DNA from: Wolbachia endosymbiont strain TRS of Brugia malayi
GTDB taxonomy: Bacteria; Pseudomonadota; Alphaproteobacteria; Rickettsiales; Anaplasmataceae
Direction of reading: 5' to 3'
Assembly: GCF_000008385.1 (NCBI RefSeq)
Contig: NC_006833.1
Span: forward strand, 120,001 to 152,000
Length of the DNA: 32,000 nucleotides
Shown: positions 1,850 through 30,830 of the stretch, in pieces
Layout of the letters: every line of letters begins with the position of its first letter
How positions within the stretch are numbered: position 1 is the stretch's first letter
Program-made: the position numbers and the translations under genes
The notes under the pieces: generated by a model
What the model was told of the DNA's origin: nothing
Seen by the model: the letters and a program-made list of their open reading frames with translations, nothing else
The model's database searches: none

Positions 1850-2210
1850 AGAGTTTTCAAGCAAGCACGACTAAGTAGGTTAAATGTAGCAATAAAAAAC
1901 AAGACTAAAAAACTACTTGACAAGCTTCGCTAGCCTTCTTACCACAAAACTGGAGCTATTTTATATAATTTTCCAGTCGCGCAGATTAAAATGACAAGAA
2001 GATCTTTTATTTGGTGTACTATGTTACCGTATGTCTTTAATAAAATTTTTAGCTTCTTGCCTATAAAAGCTGAAGCTCGCTTGTAAAGCATTTAAGATAT
2101 CACCCAACGTCAAATTTTTAAAATGAAGAGTTAGTAACTAGCTACTTTGGATTTTTTTGCCTTTTTTTTATTTAGTAAATTTCTTAAATATTTTTAGCTA
2201 CCGCCATCCC
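1850..2210 (+). repeat. Copy 1 of a modular dispersed repeat (A module plus one B unit)
   Basis: Aligns by eye with 11232-11700, 18500-18975, 30265-30830 and the reverse complement of 25812-26300. Contains AAAAACTAC-TTGACA (1917-1922), 17 bp, then TACCAC (1940-1945). Ends with TTTTTTGCCTTTTTTTTATTTAGTAAATTTCTTAAATATTTTTAGCTACCGCC. Confidence 0.85.
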
Positions 2211-2423
2211 AATTAATAAAATAAAAAATATTTCTCCTGTCTTTGAGAAATTTGTTATATTAGCTGTGGCTACTGGCTTTCATTTTTAATAGCATATTTT
2301 TTCTTAAGTAGTTAAATGGCCATTTTACAATGAATTTTGTCAGTAACCACACTAAGTTTCTTGGTTGCTATGCAACAAAGTTCAGTAGCTATATATAACT
2401 TGAATTTATCTATGGTGTGCATT

Positions 2424-2839: not shown

Positions 2840-3123
2840 TATAGAAAAAATTGGGAAGTGTAGCAGTTATAATCTCACAGTACCCATTCCAGCAATTGTG
2901 TAGGAAGTTAATAGAAAAATATTGAAAAAAGTATCCGTTTAGAGGTGTAAGCAAAAAAAACCGTCAAACAAACACAGGTGTTAAAATAAGGTAGGCTAAA
3001 CATAAAAAAAATATGGTTTCTAGTATTTTTGGGATAAAAAATGGACTTTTAAAACCTTCATAGTAGGCCTTTTATCTACACTCCTGAATAGATACACTTT
3101 AAGCATGTTTGATAAGCCTAAGT

Positions 3124-3940
3124 TTACTTAGCCACATACGAGTTTAAAAATTCAACTCCTTTGATAAATCGATAATTCTTTCTATCGTTTTGGTTTATAA
3201 CTATTATATTCAGTATTACATCTGTTATAAGGTTACCAGAAGGAAGATAATATAATTTATTTGTTACCTAATTACACTACCATTTTCGTAGAAGAATTGT
3301 TCGTTTAGAAGCCTTGCCATATGATCTCACCTCAACAATTTTAGCGCGTTTATTATTCTACAAAGCAGCAGCAACTATTTCAGATGCAGATGCAGATTTT
3401 TCATTAATTAATACTATTACAGATAATCCAGAAAATATATCTCCTTTGCTTGCTTTGTAATATTTTTTCTCTTTACTTTCCTCAGTAACTGTTTCTCCAC
3501 CATCAAAAAAACTATCGCATATTAATACTGCTTGAAAAAATAATAAGCCGTAATTATCTCTCAAATCTAGAATTATATCTTTTATGGTACTGTTATTTTC
3601 TTTAATGTTGAACCATTGCTTTCTGAAATGATTGTCAGAGTTTTCATTAAATTCAGAAATTTTAATGTAGACTATATTGTCTATAATCTTATTTGAAACA
3701 GTATTTATTTGAAGTTGCATTGTCTTGAATTCTTCACTATCAAAATAGTAAGAATATGAATCTAGTTTAGAAAATATTTCATCTATTGCATATTCAAAAC
3801 AAGAGTTTTTTGATTAATGGGCCAGACATACTCCTTTTCTATTTTTTGATTATGTTCTCGAATAATTCAATATGGTCTATTTGTTGAGCAAATGAACCAT
3901 AAGTAAATAAGGATAAAATAATAACAATAATAAATTTCAT
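3124..3940 (-). pseudogene. ctpA: C-terminal processing peptidase (S41, Ctp/Prc type) pseudogene
   Basis: Reverse-strand pieces: MKFIIVIILSLFTYGSFA (signal), EYAIDEIFSKLDSYSYYFDSEEF, IVYIKISEF...IILDLRDNYG...VIVLINEKSASASEIVAAAL*NNKRAKIV..SYGKAS, and ..TNKLYYLPSGNLITDV. There are several frameshifts, an in-frame TAG at 3358-3360 where Q is expected, and the PDZ-domain region appears to be largely deleted. Confidence 0.7.
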
Positions 3941-6015: not shown

Positions 6016-7536
6016 ATGCTTTTTCTAATGGCTATTTTAAAATGCTTGATGCTTCTTTTTATCATTTTTTGTGTATGCCTACCTACTCAAGGATATGATA
6101 AAAGCCTTACTGAAATAGAAGGTGAAGATCATCATGATATAAGTGAACACGGCTGTTCGGTAGAGCAATGTAAAAATGAAATCTCTCTTTCAGAAGGCAA
6201 CGGACCAGCAGTACCAGAAATTGTGCCTTTGCCTGTAGAGTTTCCTGATCTTACAGTCAGCAGTCAACTTATTTCTATTAATGTTAGTGAAGAAGTGTCA
6301 GTAAAGGATTTGCTGATTGAGATAGGAAAACTCTCTGATATTAACTTGGATATAAACCCCAAAATATCAGGTAATATTATTTTAAAGCTAAAAGATAAAA
6401 ATATAAATGAAGTAATCCAGAGTATAGCTGATAGCGCTAAACTGCGTTATTCAACAAGTAATGGTGTGATTAAAATTGAGCAGGATTTACCATACGCACA
6501 AAACTACTACGTAGATTTCATCAATATTCAACATTCTGCTCAGAGTAGTTTTATTGTTAATAACAATATTACTAGCGGCAATAGAGGCAACGCTGATGAA
6601 GATTGCAATAGTGTTATAAAGTCTCAATATAGCAGTGATTTGTGGAATTCATTGGAAAAAGGTCTTAATGCAATAATGGACATTAACGGGGTGGATAATA
6701 AGGAATTTCTTTCATCCAACAGAGAAACAGGTGTTATTATTTTAAATGCTAGAAAAAGTATCCATAAAGCTGTTGAAGAATATATTAATAAGGTTAAACA
6801 ATTGGCATCTTCTCAAGTGATGATAGAGGCAAAGATAGTTGAGGTTGTGTTAGACGACAAATACCTTTCTGGTATTAACTTAAATGATTTATGCAATGTA
6901 AATAAACCTGTGGTGAATCAAGATAATTCTATTATTGATCTTGCGGTAAATTTCGGTGCAAGTGACCTAGGGAATTTAGTGAAAAGTTTAGACAAATTTG
7001 GCACTTCAACTATAATTTCAAGCCCCAGAGTACATGCCATAAATAATTAGCAGGAAATGATTTCATTCACTAAAAATCACATTTATTTTACTTATGACAT
7101 ACAAAAAAATACTAAAAATTCAAATCAGATCTTAGTGACCAAAATGAATAGCGTGCCAATAGGTGTCGTGTTAATAGTTCATCCAAGCATTAATACTGAT
7201 ACTAGTGAAATATTCATGAATATACACCCAACTTTATCAAGAATTAACGGCTACACTAAAGATCCAAATATAGAGTACATCGCACAGCAGAGTAGAACAA
7301 AATTGAATAGCAATATTCCAATTGTTGAAATTAGAGAAATGAACTCTATGTTAAAGATCAAGAGTGGTGAAGTTATGGTAATTGGTGGACTTATAGAGCA
7401 TAGAGAAGATAAGCAAAGCTTTAAAGCCGCATTAAGTCAGAAGTCAAAGAGACTAGCAGACAACATGAGAACAGTAGAAACTGTCATCTTTTTAAAAGCA
7501 ACAATTGTGCCAACATTTAATTTGTTGGATAAATAA
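6016..7536 (+). pseudogene. Secretin-family outer-membrane channel (GspD/PilQ-like) interrupted by one in-frame TAG
   Basis: ORFs 6016-7050 and 7057-7536 are in the same frame and are separated only by TAG at 7048-7050 (...SSPRVHAINN*QEMISF...). The secretin domain shows VMIEAKIVEV, ISSPRV and KSGEVMVIGGL. The N-terminus looks like a signal or lipoprotein peptide. Confidence 0.7.
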
Positions 7537-11231: not shown

Positions 11232-11700
11232 GAAATGCAAAAACTACTTGACAAACCTCGCTAGCCCCCTTATCCCGATACTGGAGGTATTAAGTTACCT
11301 TCAATCTGTGCAGATTAAAATAATAAAGTGTTATATAGTTAGCATCTTATGTTTAATTTTTTGCACTATATGTACCTTATGTCTTCACAATATTTCTAAT
11401 TTTTTACCTATATAAGTTGAAACTCGCTTATAAAGCGTTTAGGACAGTATAATATACTAATTTGCAGGATTAGAGAGTAAATACTATCACCATAATATAT
11501 CTTTTGCCTTTTTTTTGCCTAGTAAATTTCTAAAACATTTATGACTAAAGGTTAGTTGCAATAAAAAACAACTAAGTCGCGATTACTAAGTATTTAAAAC
11601 ATAAAAAAACGCTAGTGTTTTTAAATAGATATTAACTAGGGCTTCTTTTGTCTTTTTCTTACTTGGTGGATTTCTTAAATATTTGTAGCTGAAGCAACTT
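11232..11700 (+). repeat. Copy 2 of the modular dispersed repeat (A module plus B-C-B units)
   Basis: GCAAAAACTAC-TTGACA (11248-11253), 17 bp, then TATCCC (11271-11276). B units lie at about 11500-11575 and 11640-11698. Same subfamily as copies 1 and 4. Confidence 0.85.
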
Positions 11701-11744: not shown

Positions 11745-12147
11745 TAGCTTTGTTGCATAGCACACGAAAAAAATATGGTGGTTATCGACAAAATTCATTA
11801 TAAGATGGCCACTTAACCACTTAACAAAAAACATGCCAGTAAAATGAAAGTCAGCAACCAAAATGAATACAATAAATTCCTCAAAGAGAGGAGAAATATT
11901 TTCTGTTTTATCAGATGAAGCAATTGACAATTGATATGAACAAAAGTGCAAGGTGGTAACTATGTTTACAGTGATAAAGTCAGTAGGAATTGGTATTAGT
12001 AATAAATTAGTAAAGTCATATTAAAATGTGACTGAAATTTGACTTAAAAATTTTTTAATACTTAATAGGTAACTCATATTCATAAATAACAAGGAACCCA
12101 TTTTATGCACTACAAGCTGAAGCAGAAAATTTCTCATTTGACAAGTA

Positions 12148-12929: not shown

Positions 12930-13034
12930 GTGTAGCGAGTAGAAGACTTTTTAATAACAGCTCTGGATTAGAAGGAGAATATTTAAAGATAGGAAAAGTA
13001 TCTATTCTACGCTGAACAGATAACTTGAAGAAAA

Positions 13035-14178
13035 CTAATTTTTAATTTGCGATATAGCAACCAGCCCAATTAATGCACAAAAAATCATACAAAAACTAGC
13101 TGAAGTCTCTTGTCCTGTAACCCCTTGATAACTGTTGTGCATATGAATGGTGTACCAATAATCCATCAGATATATTTCTTGATAAACTAAATCCGCTGTA
13201 CTGCACCTTTGTTGGAAATAATCGCACATAAGTGCACCGACAGGATCAAGCAATGCGGCTATTGGGATTATAAAAGAATGTGTACCATTATAATCAGCAA
13301 ATCATTACCACTTAATATTATTGAAAAAACTGGATAACTTGCTATTTACAAAAGTTATGAATACAAATTTCATGACTTTTTCTCTTCCTATCTTGTCGAA
13401 AGTATTGCAACTAATATAGTTAATCCTCCGAACGCAATTTGGCTCAGTATTTTTACTATATGGGTAAGAATGAGTATTTATTGTTAATGTAAGCACATTG
13501 AAAAATACTAGGTACATGTAAAGGGACGAATTTTCAACTATGTCGACCCCTATTGATACCAGAAAAGTTTTTTATAGCAATTCAATAGTTCTTTTAATGG
13601 TAATTCAGGTGGATTTTTCTGCTTTTTATACTCTGGGCTCTCATCAAGTATATACCTTGGTATTATGCTGATTAATCCCACTACTAAATTAAAACTAAAA
13701 GGTAACCTCCATTCCCAAGATTTGAAATCAGATACTTTTTTGCATATGAGTACTGCTATAAGACTCAGGATTGACCCAAGAATTGCGCTTAATACTTCAA
13801 TACTGCCAAAGAATTTCTTCTTGTTTTTAGGAGCATGCTCTAAAAATGGAATATTTCCTGCCTCTCTTCCAAAAGATATACCCTGCAATAACCTTAAACA
13901 TACCACCAGTATTGATGGCAAGTATTCCGAGATTTTGATACCATGGCATAAAAGCAATTAATACGGTTGATAGAGTCATCAATATAATTGAGAGCAATAG
14001 GGTAAACTTTCTTCTATGTTTATTGGCCAATATGGCTAAACATAGCAGCACCGGTTGTCCCATCAGGGGAAACCCACTACAAATATTCCAAAAGCCTTTG
14101 GTAGGCTAACCAACTGATCGCATAATGAAAAAAATATCGCCGATTATGTTTACTAGATGACCAAAAAGCATGTGACAT
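13035..14178 (-). pseudogene. MFS transporter (ProP/proline-betaine type) pseudogene
   Basis: Reverse-strand fragments: SGFPLMGQPVLLCLAILANKHRRKFTLLLS (compare RPxGxxxFGxxGDxxGRK), LRLLQGISFGREAGNIPFLEHAPKNKK (compare RxxQGxSxGGE....E.AP...RG), and WEWRLPF...ESPEY. They are split over at least four frames. Confidence 0.75.
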
Positions 14179-14456
14179 ACCACAGTACAGTGTTACAAAT
14201 TAAACTTGATAATATTACTTTTGTAATTTACCACACAATTTTCTACATTCAGAATGTGAAGGGTAGGATAAAATAAATTAGGAGATTTTTCTACTGATTA
14301 CATATAACTAAAAGGAGGTGAGAGTTTTGAGTCTTTTTGCATAATTACAAACCATAACAAAGTCGTAGATTTTGAATTGCTGATGCGACTGACTTCCTAA
14401 CCGTAGCACCTTTTAAAGTTTTGTTCATATGCTCAACTTGCTAAAGGCAAGAAAAT

Positions 14457-18499: not shown

Positions 18500-18975
18500 G
18501 TATTTTCAAGTAAGCTGGCCAACATCTAGGTTCTTTAGCAAAAAAAATGGATTAAATGCAAAAATACTTGATAAACTTTGCCAGTCTCCTTATCATAGTA
18601 AGCTTAATTATTTATCTTTTCTATACAGGTTAAGTAACAAAAAACTTAATGTATTTAGTATTTCGCATTTAATTTTCTGCACTATGTGCACTTTATGTTT
18701 TTTATATTGTTATCTATTACCAACTAGTACTGTAAATTGCGCTTGCTAAAAAACGCCAACTGATAAAATGATAGTGAACAACTAACTGTTCTAGGTCTTT
18801 TTTTCTATCAGTAAGTTTCTTAATATTTATAATTTAGATTAATTGCAGCTCAAAAGCAACCTAGTCATGATTATTAAGTGTTTAGAATAAAAAAACGCCA
18901 TATTTAAAAATTAAATATAAATAAGTAGTCACTCACTAGGTTTTTTTTACCTTTTTTCTACTTATTAAATTTCTT
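18500..18975 (+). repeat. Copy 3 of the modular dispersed repeat (A module plus B-C-B units; last B truncated by an IS)
   Basis: Collinear with the reverse complement of 25812-26300 (same subfamily). The last B unit stops at AAATTTCTT, exactly where the IS inverted repeat begins. Confidence 0.85.
18568..18596 (+). promoter_or_regulatory. Best-preserved promoter-like box of the repeat family (TTGATA - 17 bp - TATCAT, preceded by an A-tract)
   Basis: GCAAAAATAC-TTGATA (18568-18573), then AACTTTGCCAGTCTCCT, then TATCAT (18591-18596). The equivalent box sits at the same place in all five copies. Confidence 0.45.
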
Positions 18976-20434
18976 ATAACCGTTCACGGAGATAAGGGAT
19001 TTACAAAGTGATTGTAAAAGTGTAAAGACATGAGAAGCTAAGTATAGAGTGGGTATGATAACAGGGCTGCAGAAAAGATTGTGGCGTACAAATCAAAAAA
19101 CGCTAATCTCAAAGAAGAAATAAAGGCTCTGATTATAGAAAATGATGGCTTAAAAGCAAAAATAATTGAGCTAGAAGATAAACTGGGTCTGAACTCAAAA
19201 AGTTCATCTCTACCACCATCGCAAGATATATATCGCAAAAAAACAAAAAAGAAAAGTGATAAAAAACCAGGAGGTCAGCCAGGGCATAAGGTATATAAGT
19301 GAGATTTGATGGTAGCAAATATAGTAGTAGACTATACAATTTTATCAGGTTTGTGTGTGTGGAAATAAGGTTGTTTTAGAAGATGAAATTGTCCATTAAA
19401 AGGTAGAATTACCAGAAATCAAACCAATCGTAACTGAGTACAGGTTGCAAAGAAACTATTACAGAGCTTGTGATAGGAAGGGTTCAGCTAGTTTAACCAT
19501 GGGGGTTTCAAGAGGTCCTCTAGGGTTCAATGCTAAAACAACAATTAGCAGCCTAAGTGGCTTTTTTATTAACTCGAAAAGAAAAGTACAACAAATTTTA
19601 AGCAGTATATTTAACCTCAATATAAGTCTTAGTTTAGTATCAAAGACTGAGCACAGAGTATCAAAAGATGCGCATCTGAATATGAGAAAATGAAGGAAGA
19701 ATTGAAAGAAACCTGCATATAGATGAAACATAGCACAGAAATCAAGGAGAAAGAGGCTGGGTTGGGTAATAACAACAAAGCGCTCTGACACTTCTAAAGA
19801 TGACCGAGTCTCGTGGCAAGAAGGTGTTGCAAAGTTTACTGCCAGAATACAATGGCATAGTTGTAAGCAACAATACGCTGCGTACAATTATTTTAGTTTG
19901 AAAATAGATAGATATGTTGGACACATTTGACAAGAGATTTTCAAAGATTTGCGTATAGTAAAAATATTGAAGTGAGCAAAATTGGCCAGGCGCTCAAGTC
20001 ACTCAATAACAGAGTATTTGTGGTACAAAAGCAAAAAAATAAAATTTGGTAGATGATTTACGATTTTATCAACTAATGTAAAAATTTTGAAAAAGGGTAG
20101 AACATCTTTTGTGTAAAATGACTAGGGTTATAAATGGTACTCAAACTTTGAGGATGGCTGCCAAGATGTTAAGATCTGAGGATATGGAAGTTTTTACGAA
20201 AACTTGAAGTGATAGATACAACCAATAACCTTGCAGAACGGTAAATGAGGCGCTATGTAATCTATTGTAAGAACAGCTTTTTCACTTGGTCAGAACGTGG
20301 AGAAAGATTCATAAAGATGTTGTCGATATTTTAACTTCGCGTCTAAATGGCCAAAATTCCTTTCAAAAGTTACAGAATCTAGTAACTGTTACTGCTTAAT
20401 TCTTTATTCATTTCCACAATTTGTAAACGGTTAC
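18976..20434 (+). mobile_element. Degraded IS66-family insertion sequence (transposase pseudogene)
   Basis: Imperfect terminal inverted repeats ATAACCGTTCAC (18976-) and GTAAACGGTTAC (-20434). The N-terminal ORF 19081-19302 has a coiled coil plus SSSLPPSQD...KKPGGQPGHK, typical of IS66 TnpC. Later frames show LHIDET, TTNNLAER.MRRYVIYCKNSFFTWSERGERF and many stops or frameshifts. Confidence 0.8.
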
Positions 20435-23970: not shown

Positions 23971-25029
23971 TTATAGTAAGGCACCACTACTCATAATATT
24001 TGCTGAAGTTATTATTGAGTCAAACACTAAATATAATGCTGTGACTAACGAGAGCATTTTCGGAAAGAACTTAAAGTACTTTTTAAGCACAGGCAGCATT
24101 ACCATGATTCCTCCCGCCGAACTGCAACAATAGCAAATTTAAATAACAAAAAATAGAGAAGGAAAGTTATATAGTACATTATATACATAACCGGAAGTAA
24201 TTATCATTGATAATATTATAATAAAAACAATTCCCATTAAGTAAAAGCCAGCAGTTATTTGGTACAACAGATAATACAAGATCAGGTTGCTTTACATTTT
24301 TTTGCTCTCTTCAAGAGTAAAGGGCATAGTTGCATTACTAAACATTGCACTTATTACGATAATAAATGCCGGTATCATATTGCTTATGCTAATTATCCAG
24401 CTCGTGATCTTGAATGAATTTGCAGCTCCATATAAGAGAAAAATATAAAAGGTAAGTTGCGAATGTAATAACCACAAAAATTATTGAGCAACCTTTAAAT
24501 ACTGCAGATATAATCTAATCATGCTGCATTTTTAAAGTAAGCCCAAGTGCAAATACCGGAATAACCGGCGTCAAGAGTACTTTCAGAATAAACAGAGCTA
24601 AACCTGACATTTTGTGCGAGAGCTCTTTGCTCTTTTTGGGTAGCAAAACAGACACCACTATGCCGGATATAAGTTCACAAATGAGAGCATAAAAGTTAGA
24701 AAGCAGTGCAGGTAGTGTAAGCAACCATAAGGGAATAATTGTTTCTTCATACGTTATATCTTGTATTGAATAAGTGTTTTGTAGTATAAAATACCCAATT
24801 AAATAAGCTATTGAACTTGAAGCCAGGTTTGATAAGAAGATTGTCATAATAAGTAACAATATAAACTTTTAAAGATTAACATAAAAATAATAAGAGGCAT
24901 TATAAACAGCAAAGTTTCTTTGATGCTTAAGCTCATTGAGTACAAAAAGGCTTTCGTTTCTACTGGAACCAAATGACCAAAAAATACAACTGAAGTGATA
25001 ATAATAAGTAAGGTTAGTAGTTGTAACAA
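23971..25029 (-). pseudogene. Dicarboxylate/amino-acid:cation symporter (DAACS, GltP-like) pseudogene
   Basis: Reverse-strand fragments: SIKETLLFIMPLIIFMLIF, ALFILKVLLTPVIPVFALGLTL, and after frameshifts CSSAGGIMVMLPVLKKYF...LVFDSIITSANIMSSGALL*. They are split over at least four frames. Confidence 0.6.
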
Positions 25030-25811: not shown

Positions 25812-26300
25812 AACGACGGTAGTTACAAATATTTAAGAAATTTTTTAAATAGAAAAAAAGGCAAAAAACCCGTTGGTGGCGAGTTATTTATATTAACTTT
25901 ATAGTTAGCATTTTTTTATTCTAAACGTCCAATCTAGCTCCTTTTAAGTCATAGCTGATCTAAATTTAAACGTTAGAAAAATTACTAAGCAGAAAAAAGG
26001 TAAAAAACCCTGTTAGCTAATTATTCACTACCTATCTTTTTAAATTGGCATTTTTTACTGTGTCAAATGCTTTAACAAGCGCATTTCAATTATATTAAGT
26101 AAAAACCTGAAAGGTTATAAAGATATACGGTGCACATAGTGCAAAAAATTAAATATGAGGCATCAAGTACATTGAGTCTTTTGTCGTTTAAATCTGTATA
26201 GAGAAGATAAATAATTAGCTTCAATGTTACAATAAGGAAGCTGGTGAAGTTTGTTGAGTAGTTTTTTGTAGTTCCATTCCCTGTTTTCAAATCATAATAT
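25812..26300 (-). repeat. Copy 5 of the modular dispersed repeat (inverted orientation; A module plus B-C-B units)
   Basis: The reverse complement is collinear with copy 3. The box is AAAAAACTAC-TCAACA (26257-26252), 17 bp, then TATTGT (26234-26229). It ends in ...AAATTTCTTAAATATTTGTAACTACCGTCG. Confidence 0.85.
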
Positions 26301-26320: not shown

Positions 26321-27103
26321 CTAGTTATAAGGCGGAAAATGCCAATTTTTAGGTGATAATGTGAATATTTCAACACCATCCTCTGTTACTCCAAGCGTAT
26401 GTTCAAATTGTGCAGAGAGCGAAAGATCGCGTGTTGTTACTGTCCAATTATCAAGTCTACTAAGCAGAGTTTCATGTTTTCCAGCGTTGATCATTGGTTC
26501 TATTGTAAAAAACATCCCCTCCTTTAATACAAGGCTTTCACCTTGATCATAGAAATGTACTACATTAGGCGGCGCATGGAAGACTTTTCCTATACCATGT
26601 CCGCAATAGCTACGTACTATAGAATAGCCAAAATCTCTAATATACTTTTCTACAGCAAGCCCTATCTCGTTCAATTTATTACCAGGCTTAACTTGTTTTA
26701 TTGCTTCCATCAATGCAACATAAGTAGCATCACATAAGCGTTTTGCTTTTATTGATGGTTTGCCAGCCCAAAACATGCGGCTTGTATCACCATACCAACC
26801 ATTTAAAATCACCGTAACGTCGATATTTAAAATGTCCCCATCTTTAAGTGGTTTATCATCAGGAATACCATGACATACAACAGCATTTTTCGAAGTGCAA
26901 ATCGACTTGGGGTATCCTTTATAGTTTAATGGTGCCGGAATTGCACCTGCTTTGACTATAAAATCATGACATAGATCATTTAATTTATTAGTTGTTACTC
27001 CTACCTTTACGTATGGTGCAATGAAATCAAGAGTTTCAGCTGCTAATCTTCCAGCTTTACGCATAAATTCAAAATCTTTTTGTGAATGTAAAGTTATGCT
27101 CAT
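26321..27103 (-). CDS. map: Methionine aminopeptidase, type I
   Basis: 260 aa with VVCHGIP, DILNIDVT, YCGHGIG, FTIEPM and QFEHTL metal-ligand blocks. Confidence 0.93.
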   Translation of the reverse strand: MSITLHSQKDFEFMRKAGRLAAETLDFIAPYVKVGVTTNKLNDLCHDFIVKAGAIPAPLNYKGYPKSICTSKNAVVCHGIPDDKPLKDGDILNIDVTVILNGWYGDTSRMFWAGKPSIKAKRLCDATYVALMEAIKQVKPGNKLNEIGLAVEKYIRDFGYSIVRSYCGHGIGKVFHAPPNVVHFYDQGESLVLKEGMFFTIEPMINAGKHETLLSRLDNWTVTTRDLSLSAQFEHTLGVTEDGVEIFTLSPKNWHFPPYN

Positions 27104-30182: not shown

Positions 30183-30264
30183 CAAACTGATAAGATAATG
30201 GACTCTTATATTATTCACTCCTCAAGCACAGCTATTATAGTAGTCATTCAAATAGTTTACCCAG

Positions 30265-30830
30265 AAACGCAAAAAATTACTTGACACACTTTGTCAGCTC
30301 TCTTAACCCTAGCAATAGGGCTATTTTATATAACCTCCTAATCTGTGCAAATTAAAATGACAAGAAGGTTTTGTATTTGATGTACTATTGTTTAATTCCT
30401 TGTACTACGTACGCCGTATGTCTTTATAAAATTTCTATAGTTCTTACCTAATACAAGCTGAAATATACTTATAAAGCGTTTAAGACATCATCTAACATCA
30501 AAATTTTTAAACAAAGAGCTAGTAACTAACTACTCTGTTTTTTTTGCCTTTTTTTCTGCTTGGTAAATTTTTAAAATATTTATGACCCCAATTAAGTTGC
30601 ATTGAAAAGCAGCTAGACTGCAGCATTTAAGACTTAAGAAATGCCAATACTGAAAATAGATACTAACCAGAGCTTTTTTATCTTTTTTTTATTTAGTAAA
30701 TTTCTTAAATATCTATAACTAAAGGCTAGTTGCAAAAAAGCAGCTAGCGTTTAGAATAAGGAAACGCTGAAAAAACATAAATACTATAGAGTTTCCTCTG
30801 CCTTTTAGGCTAAGTCATACAAAAAGTCTA
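30265..30830 (+). repeat. Copy 4 of the modular dispersed repeat (A module plus B-C-B-C and a partial B)
   Basis: GCAAAAAATTAC-TTGACA (30281-30286), 17 bp, then TAACCC (30304-30309). B boxes lie at about 30562 and about 30695 (period about 133 bp). Hairpins are AGTTGC-AAAAAA-GCAGCT (30728-30745) and GCGTTT-AGAATAAGG-AAACGC (30747-30767). Confidence 0.85.

Follow-up and report, generated by a model that had tools for sequence, protein, structure and literature searches.

[quoted passage not shown] The BOX elements of pneumococci are modular repeats of less than 350 bp with the order boxA-boxB(n)-boxC; to our knowledge, none of them carries a consensus promoter. The Wolbachia element described here is also short, non-coding, TIR-bounded, intergenic, multi-copy and promoter-bearing; however, it is three to four times longer than the Correia elements, contains a complete internal promoter, whereas the promoter of Correia elements is created at an end, possesses tandem tail modules and lacks sequence similarity to them. 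It resembles the BOX elements in that an internal or terminal module is present in variable number, but the sequences are unrelated.

Five segments of this kind are located in a 32,000-nt stretch of the chromosome of the Wolbachia endosymbiont of Brugia malayi, strain TRS (wBm; NC_006833.1, positions 120,001 to 152,000; hereafter referred to as the window). They are likely, with a probability of about 0.75, to be old, decaying copies of a genus-wide, non-autonomous, MITE-like DNA transposon of around 450 to 600 bp. The copies are an informative, yet fairly ordinary genome fossil and do not represent a new kind of biological system.

Traces of the element can be found in the literature on wMel. 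Class C11 is the most abundant wMel repeat in Table S1 of Wu et al. 2004, with 89 pieces of up to ~510 bp, and the text of that study mentions a 'repeat family 8', described as a new element of 45 copies with inverted repeats on its flanks. The element coincides with C11 by coordinates and, indirectly, by RACE clone sequence: the 5'RACE start of the intergenic region IGR-1047 (1,216,539) falls inside C11R78-83 (1216516-1217060). C11 pieces are also present in three further intergenic regions that were chosen for their RNA-seq signal by Woolfit et al. 2015 (PMC4349823). Class C11 is probably the same as 'repeat family 8', and the element agrees with them in size, copy number and inverted-repeat flanks; RepeatFinder divided the family into several classes in that study. 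The table and the text passage on C11 and family 8 give no anatomy, promoter, distribution or name. The element has thus been listed as an uncharacterised repeat in wMel and mapped there by RACE without being recognised as a repeat. No paper describing its anatomy was found in a literature search, and a full-text search for its conserved motifs revealed no paper that prints them in the main text. The transcripts ncrwmel01, ncrwmel02 and WsnRNA-46 are intergenic Wolbachia transcripts as well, and the element RNAs stem from the same 2015 screen; however, the Rfam family WsnRNA46 has no match to the element, and two element-derived RNAs, in contrast to ncrwmel01 and ncrwmel02, were set aside as possible 5' UTRs in the 2015 study.

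A high-copy repeat family of Wolbachia

The window has a G+C content of ~27-37% by 1-kb window, many of its ORFs are fragmented, and the nearest named protein matches of its genes are found in the Wolbachia of Wuchereria bancrofti (97-99% identity). Two adjacent same-strand ORFs at 6016-7050 and 7057-7536 (+; 344 and 159 aa) resemble a single secretin-like gene interrupted by a stop codon and are a probable pseudogene. The five segments are mutually homologous, with pairwise identities of 62-73% and E-values down to 1e-59 in a self-BLASTN comparison. A failed formal multiple alignment had been named in the initial annotation as a possible refutation of the alignment of the five segments; MAFFT aligned them end to end, and a profile HMM, which was trained on 85 family members and run on the window with nhmmer, recovers all five with E-values of 1e-43 to 2e-104. 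The shared order proposed there, consisting of an A-run, a TTGACA box, a core, T-runs and a AAATTTCTTAAATATTT box, was correct, as was the statement that the copies make up ~7% of the window (~2.25-2.3 kb). The boundaries required revision: the homology itself stands, but the starts of copies 1 and 3 had been placed too far upstream, and the true 5' edges are ~50 nt further in. The stretches upstream of these edges represent a shared sub-terminal region. Beyond the five copies, the HMM detects only extra tail modules within copies 3 and 4; 'extra fragments' at 1815-1846 and 2930-3110, which had been assigned to the family, are not members even with nhmmer --max and E<=100.

The copies differ in the number of their tandem tail modules of ~133-144 bp each, with one module in copy 1, two in copies 2, 3 and 5 and three in copy 4. 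Copy 1 (1902-2202, +; nhmmer E = 1e-57) lies 3' of tRNA-Cys (1709-1781) and has an internal deletion of ~20 nt; its -35 box TTGACA is located at 1917-1922 and a degenerate -10 box, TACCAC, at 1940-1945. Copy 2 (11233-11698, +; E = 2e-104 over 11235-11698) is in divergent orientation relative to prs, with a -35 box TTGACA at 11248-11253 and a degenerate -10 box TATCCC at 11271-11276. In copy 3 (18542-18987, +; E = 1.5e-43 over 18559-18908, tail match at 18872-18987), TTGATA (18568-18573) and TATCAT (18591-18596) are separated by a 17-nt spacer. Copy 4 (30264-30830, +; E = 1.5e-81 over 30264-30689, tail match at 30674-30824) is found directly 3' of udg, extends with its three modules to ~30830 and carries the boxes TTGACA (30281-30286) and TAACCC (30304-30309). 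Copy 5 is the only one on the opposite strand (25815-26287, -; E = 1e-81 over 26272-25819); it has a -35 box TCAACA at 26257-26252 and a -10 box TATTGT at 26234-26229 and is located directly 3' of and co-oriented with map, which encodes a methionine aminopeptidase (26321-27103, -), at the edge of an inverted block.

The family extends far beyond wBm. Four of the five window copies contain a degenerate 34-nt pattern derived from the most conserved block, where chance would predict no match, and the same pattern occurs at no fewer than, that being at least, 120 reference-genome loci. Among the matches listed, all are from Wolbachia or from 'Rickettsiales bacterium' MAGs; the named hosts are insects (beetles, a cicada and a bird louse) and the filariae Mansonella and Litomosoides, and at least ~32 of the listed loci belong to a single Wolbachia strain of Cantharis. 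The initial annotation had described a five-copy family; the family is genus-wide and present in high copy number. In a comparison of 85 copies with flanks of 250-550 nt, conservation rises and falls sharply at shared boundaries, which delimit a unit of ~445 nt. The window copies are up to 83% identical to copies elsewhere and thereby more similar to these than to each other. The two subfamilies proposed previously (copies 1, 2 and 4 versus copies 3 and 5) have to be replaced by three sub-types, {1,4}, {3,5} and {2}. Each of them recurs in other Wolbachia strains by sequence comparison, and the sub-types therefore predate these lineages. The median identity within a genome is 0.93 in the Psylliodes Wolbachia, 0.82 in the Cantharis Wolbachia and 0.67 in the window, and 45% of the pairs in the Psylliodes Wolbachia and 18% of those in the Cantharis Wolbachia are more than 95% identical. 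These values fit recent bursts in the insect strains and ancient copies in wBm.

No Rfam family matched at the gathering score and E<=1 when the window copies and consensus-like copies in loci L009, L012 and L018 were scanned. The initial annotation could not place the element in any known class, which holds for Rfam, but is contradicted by its MITE-like hallmarks and its coincidence with wMel C11. Sub-threshold matches to Rfam WsnRNA46, which are unrelated to the element, were observed at L018:3787-3935, there on both strands, and at L012:4549-4715, and suggest a palindromic repeat related to that small RNA. In the window, a weak sub-threshold match to the Rickettsia sRNA47 family is located at 3349-3412 (+; E = 9e-4, 28.6 bits with the gathering score at 60), within the gap that precedes ORF 3358-3720. 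Phage-borne spread of the element was also considered and rejected. The viral contigs of IMG/VR contain no match, and the sole match in a phage collection is a 90-nt fragment of the promoter end, located between ruvA and rnhB in locus L132 (MN180249.1, 22664-25754). This record is labelled 'unverified Wolbachia phage WO'; however, it carries ruvA, ruvB, rnhB and mraY and looks chromosomal.

Termini, insertion sites and a candidate helper

A perfect 17-bp inverted repeat, TAGACTTCTTGCATAAC ... GTTATGCAAGAAGTCTA, delimits many of the copies, with TA as the outermost bases on both sides (flanks of ~70 copies listed). Both TIRs are present in 16 of 96 evaluable copies, many of them perfect and with a span of 450-900 bp (mostly 450-500); the left TIR only was found in 20, the right TIR only in eight and neither in 52 within the distances searched. 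Because of these 52 copies, a TIR-less ancestral form is possible. TA flanks every TIR-bounded copy on both sides, and it may represent terminal bases rather than a 2-bp target duplication; no longer flanking direct repeat was seen at TIR-bounded copies. In the window, the copies other than copy 4 have no TIR at up to four mismatches. Copy 4 retains the T-run, AGG and a remnant of the right TIR at 30814-30830 (+; GTCATACAAAAAGTCTA, 14/17 matches), and the TIR-bearing form is therefore old.

Orthologous loci in sister strains, whose comparison had been proposed as a check, include both filled and empty sites. At the clpA-fba-tRNA-Cys site, a copy is present in wBm and in the two MAG loci L045 and L102; the site is empty, even at nhmmer E<=10, in two filarial-strain loci, L127 and L128 (taken as supergroups C and J), and in a supergroup A genome (L129-131). 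wBm carries a copy 3' of both map and udg; the Psylliodes Wolbachia (L030) carries none 3' of map and an orthologous truncated one 3' of udg. The presence of the element at orthologous sites in some lineages and its absence in others argue for a MITE-like, non-autonomous element of ~450-600 bp.

A candidate helper is a ~900-bp IS of the IS5 family, which is located at L126:790-1697 and also in L019, L089 and L119, with several copies in the Cantharis Wolbachia. It contains two ORFs, HTH_Tnp_4 followed by DDE_Tnp_4, which are apparently joined by a frameshift, and has perfect 19-bp ends (TAGACTTCTTTCAAAATTC; the ends are given as TAGACTTCTTTCAAAATT). The element shares the termini TAGACTTCTT with this IS of the same genomes; however, the common part is restricted to the first 10-11 nt, the remaining TIR bases differ, the element lacks a transposase, and its interior shows no similarity to the co-resident IS outside the termini. 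IS5-family relics have been reported in wBm (Cerveau 2011). ISWpi1 was rejected as a partner, since its published TIR features differ, with TTGTCC at positions 5-10. Retroposition was rejected as well, since all copies contain the promoter and the A-run, which lie ~45 nt upstream of the mapped transcription start site (TSS).

An intact copy begins at its left end with TA, the 17-bp left TIR TAGACTTCTTGCATAAC, a short variable sub-terminal stretch and the A-run. These are followed by a near-consensus sigma-70 promoter (TTGACA-17 nt-TAYCAT) and a non-coding core of ~250 nt, in which a 5' hairpin, the hairpin TGCAC-TAT-GTGCA and a long-range pairing of TTGGCG with CGCCAA are predicted. Next come one to three tandem tail modules of ~140 bp, all of which contain a T-run and GTAAATTTCTTAAATATTT, and the right end is completed by AGG, the right TIR and TA. 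Such copies were presumably moved in trans by an IS5-family transposase acting on TAGACTTCTT ends, and the number of tails probably changes through slippage or unequal recombination. In wBm, which lacks a functional IS, the copies would be inherited fossils with eroded ends and mostly damaged -10 boxes.

The decay of the wBm copies can be followed at prs. An orthologue of copy 2 is found upstream of prs in the Wolbachia of Litomosoides sigmodontis (wLs; L133:6564-6878), which is among the closest named relatives of wBm by prs identity (88%). Copy 2 and its orthologue are 78.6% identical with 28 gap columns; the corresponding values are 81.8% for the 4-fold sites of prs and 84.8% for the spacer next to prs, and the promoter of the wLs orthologue is destroyed. 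The divergence of these two copies amounts to neutral decay in supergroup D. Because the wBm copies are present at orthologous sites in wLs and other supergroups, they can be used as dated neutral markers.

Promoter, transcript and possible functions

The promoter is conserved in the 111 full copies: TTGACA is intact in 105 of them, and a -10 box TAnnAT, with A2 and T6 kept, is present in ~100. A consensus-like copy scores 11/12 in a promoter scan. Transcription from this promoter is documented in wMel, not in wBm. Woolfit et al. tabulated 5'RACE inserts for IGR-1021 and IGR-1047 (PMC4349823, S1 Table C), and a motif search of this supplement revealed that both inserts are sense-strand copies of the element, which begin with GAAGGCATTCAG... 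and GAAGCTATTG..., respectively, right after the RNA adaptor. Aligned with the locus and the window copies, both 5' ends correspond to a G 7 nt downstream of the -10 box. The IGR-1047 product is longer than 330 nt and passes the first tail T-run, and the IGR-1021 RNA extends into the downstream CDS, with which it is co-transcribed (PMC4349823). The authors set both RNAs aside as possible 5' UTRs, and their repeat membership went unremarked (PMC4349823). The IGR-1049 primers of the same study also fall within a copy, and of the 13 wMel intergenic regions picked for RNA-seq signal, at least six carry the family by sequence or coordinates. No intrinsic terminators were detected in the T-run and tail regions, and the T-runs are not canonical; a role of the tails as terminators was rejected on these grounds and since wMel RNA reads through them. 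According to the published wMel RACE data, the internal promoter fires rightward; the transcript crosses the tails and can enter the next gene, so that each insertion would plant a new transcription start. In wBm, the predicted starts are ~1952, 11283, ~18603 and ~30316 on the + strand and ~26222 on the - strand.

A mapped start and a conserved promoter could also mean that the core is a functional non-coding RNA family, either a multi-copy sRNA or a 5' leader, which is kept by selection and for which the TIRs are a mere vehicle; some wBm copies, such as copy 3, would then still yield a working RNA. This explanation is unlikely, but it accounts for several observations. Apart from the promoter, which is conserved in more than 90% of the copies and has a mapped TSS in wMel, and the presence of the family in at least six of the 13 RNA-seq-selected regions, the 5' hairpin and the long-range helix reach 93-97% pairing, and many G-U substitutions fit only the sense strand. 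The central TGCAC-TAT-GTGCA hairpin is swapped for a different hairpin in one subfamily. RNAalifold predicts only the 5' hairpin right after the TSS and the long-range TTGGCG/CGCCAA helix on the sense strand and nothing on the antisense strand; however, the consensus structure is almost nil, with ~-2 to -5 kcal/mol. A hand-built structure of five elements (29 pairs, counted by the tool as seven helices) was scored on a MAFFT alignment of 35 non-redundant copies, which are phylogenetically related and represent few independent events. It is 88.5% paired, its number of paired cells was beaten by one of 500 shuffles, and 12 pairs change on both sides versus 7.5 expected (12/500 shuffles); in contrast, the covariation score is no different from shuffles, 95 of 500 of which reach it. 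A brute-force search for helices among all pairs of columns gave too much noise to be useful. The orthologous element of L045 and L102 is 86% identical, compared with 70% at the 4-fold sites of the adjacent fba, which would be unexpected for pure junk and suggests selection or gene conversion; gene conversion between copies could, however, mimic constraint. A functional RNA is further disfavoured by the lack of a defined 3' end and of a terminator, by the widely varying copy number, by orthologous sites that are empty in several supergroups and by the neutral decay between wBm and wLs. A functional RNA thus seems possible from the sequence comparisons, but is unproven. The version restricted to insect Wolbachia, in which a mobile transcription unit produces a functional ~300-nt sense RNA with the 5' hairpin, the central hairpin and the long-range helix under selection, is equally doubtful.

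It is considerably less probable that the wBm copies have been co-opted as promoters or regulatory cassettes of the neighbouring genes and are kept for that role. The entry of the wMel IGR-1021 transcript into the downstream CDS would be in line with this idea, as would the position of copy 5 upstream of and co-oriented with ORF 24515-24859 and the promoter of copy 3, which is the best surviving one and the only one in the window that scores 10/12. However, the invariant final T of the -10 box has been lost from copies 1, 2 and 4, the -35 box of copy 5 is weak, and the regions downstream of copies 1, 2 and 4 consist of pseudogene remnants or other repeats. Across loci, the downstream neighbour is co-oriented in 41 versus 33 cases only, and the significant bias is instead for a location 3' of a co-oriented upstream gene (65 versus 35); the missing preference for facing a downstream gene argues against a general use as promoter, with the reservation that the copies are not independent. 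The neutral divergence from wLs speaks against domestication, too. Hardly tenable is a decayed protein-coding gene or a pseudogene family derived from an IS interior, which could have been suspected given the many pseudogenes and degraded IS copies of wBm (Cerveau 2011). A conserved ORF was sought in 111 copies and none was found, even among near-identical copies of the insect strains; the median longest stop-free stretch is 59 aa, and an ATG within the -10 box is not conserved. In addition, the indels are not multiples of three, and the consensus is unlike the co-resident IS beyond the termini. The element is thus non-coding, as already concluded in the initial annotation, and old copies of a MITE-like transposon remain the preferred reading.

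Rearrangement at the copies and meaning for Wolbachia genomes

The copies adjoin or lie near pseudogenised regions, in agreement with the initial annotation, which had placed each of them next to a pseudogene or a break in gene order. Such a break exists at copies 2 and 5, between which lies a block that has the opposite orientation in another Wolbachia. The gene order in the Psylliodes Wolbachia (L030) is udg, def, ftsA, map, geneY and rsmH; in the window, a geneY remnant (13018-14269) and rsmH are on the + strand and map is on the - strand at 26.3 kb. The block from 11.7 to 26.3 kb, which comprises the geneY remnant, rsmH, sucB and tsaB, is therefore inverted with respect to map-ftsA when compared with L030, and its edges coincide with copy 2 plus a second repeat, termed X, and with copy 5. 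When the segment between copies 2 and 5, which are in opposite orientation, is re-inverted in silico, the order ftsA-map-geneY-rsmH is restored. The earlier proposal that the copies are substrates for inversion is thus plausible, but only one junction could be confirmed; a search in wLs and wPip did not reveal the reciprocal junction that this model predicts next to prs. A repeat-mediated inversion between copies 2 and 5 is thus no more than a plausible possibility, and the wBm copies would remain possible substrates for homologous recombination.

Several further repeats accompany the element. Repeat X is ~165 bp long and follows directly after copies 1 and 2, at 2216-2380 (+) and, inverted, at 11748-11911, with 81% identity between the two. 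One of its ends reads GCTTTGTTGCAT, copies of ~80% identity are present in five other Wolbachia loci, and in L016 and L028 it again abuts the 3' end of the main element. The two 'extra fragments' contain a 17-nt inverted-repeat pair (1825-1841 and 3079-3095, 94% complementary), which brackets copy 1, repeat X and a pseudogene-like stretch at 2400-2840 and may represent the ends of another decayed element; wBm has ~90 nt more between tRNA-Cys and copy 1 than L045 and L102. In insect strains (L009, L013, L053, L102 and others), short hairpin repeats GTCATCCCAGTG...CACTGGGATGAC are frequent in the flanks, and the element has GTCATTCCAG motifs in direct orientation on either side. Some copies are extended at the 3' side by a stretch that contains a perfect 10-bp hairpin, AACATTTGTT-TTTAC-AACAAATGTT.

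The analysis provides a name and an anatomy for what is apparently the most abundant repeat of wMel, which also fills many intergenic gaps of wBm, and links three literatures, the repeat tables of 2004, the sRNA screen of 2015 and the MITE census of 2024. Rearrangement analyses in filarial Wolbachia should account for the copies, and lists of sRNA candidates need to be checked against the element family. A good share of the 'intergenic transcription' of Wolbachia probably starts at a transposon-borne promoter, and RNA-seq or TSS studies that drop multi-mapping reads will miss the starts within the element. If the RNA were indeed functional in insect Wolbachia, the element would be a multi-copy regulatory RNA spread by a transposon or a portable promoter, which rewires expression in an endosymbiont poor in transcription factors, and filarial strains such as wBm would be losing a functional element.
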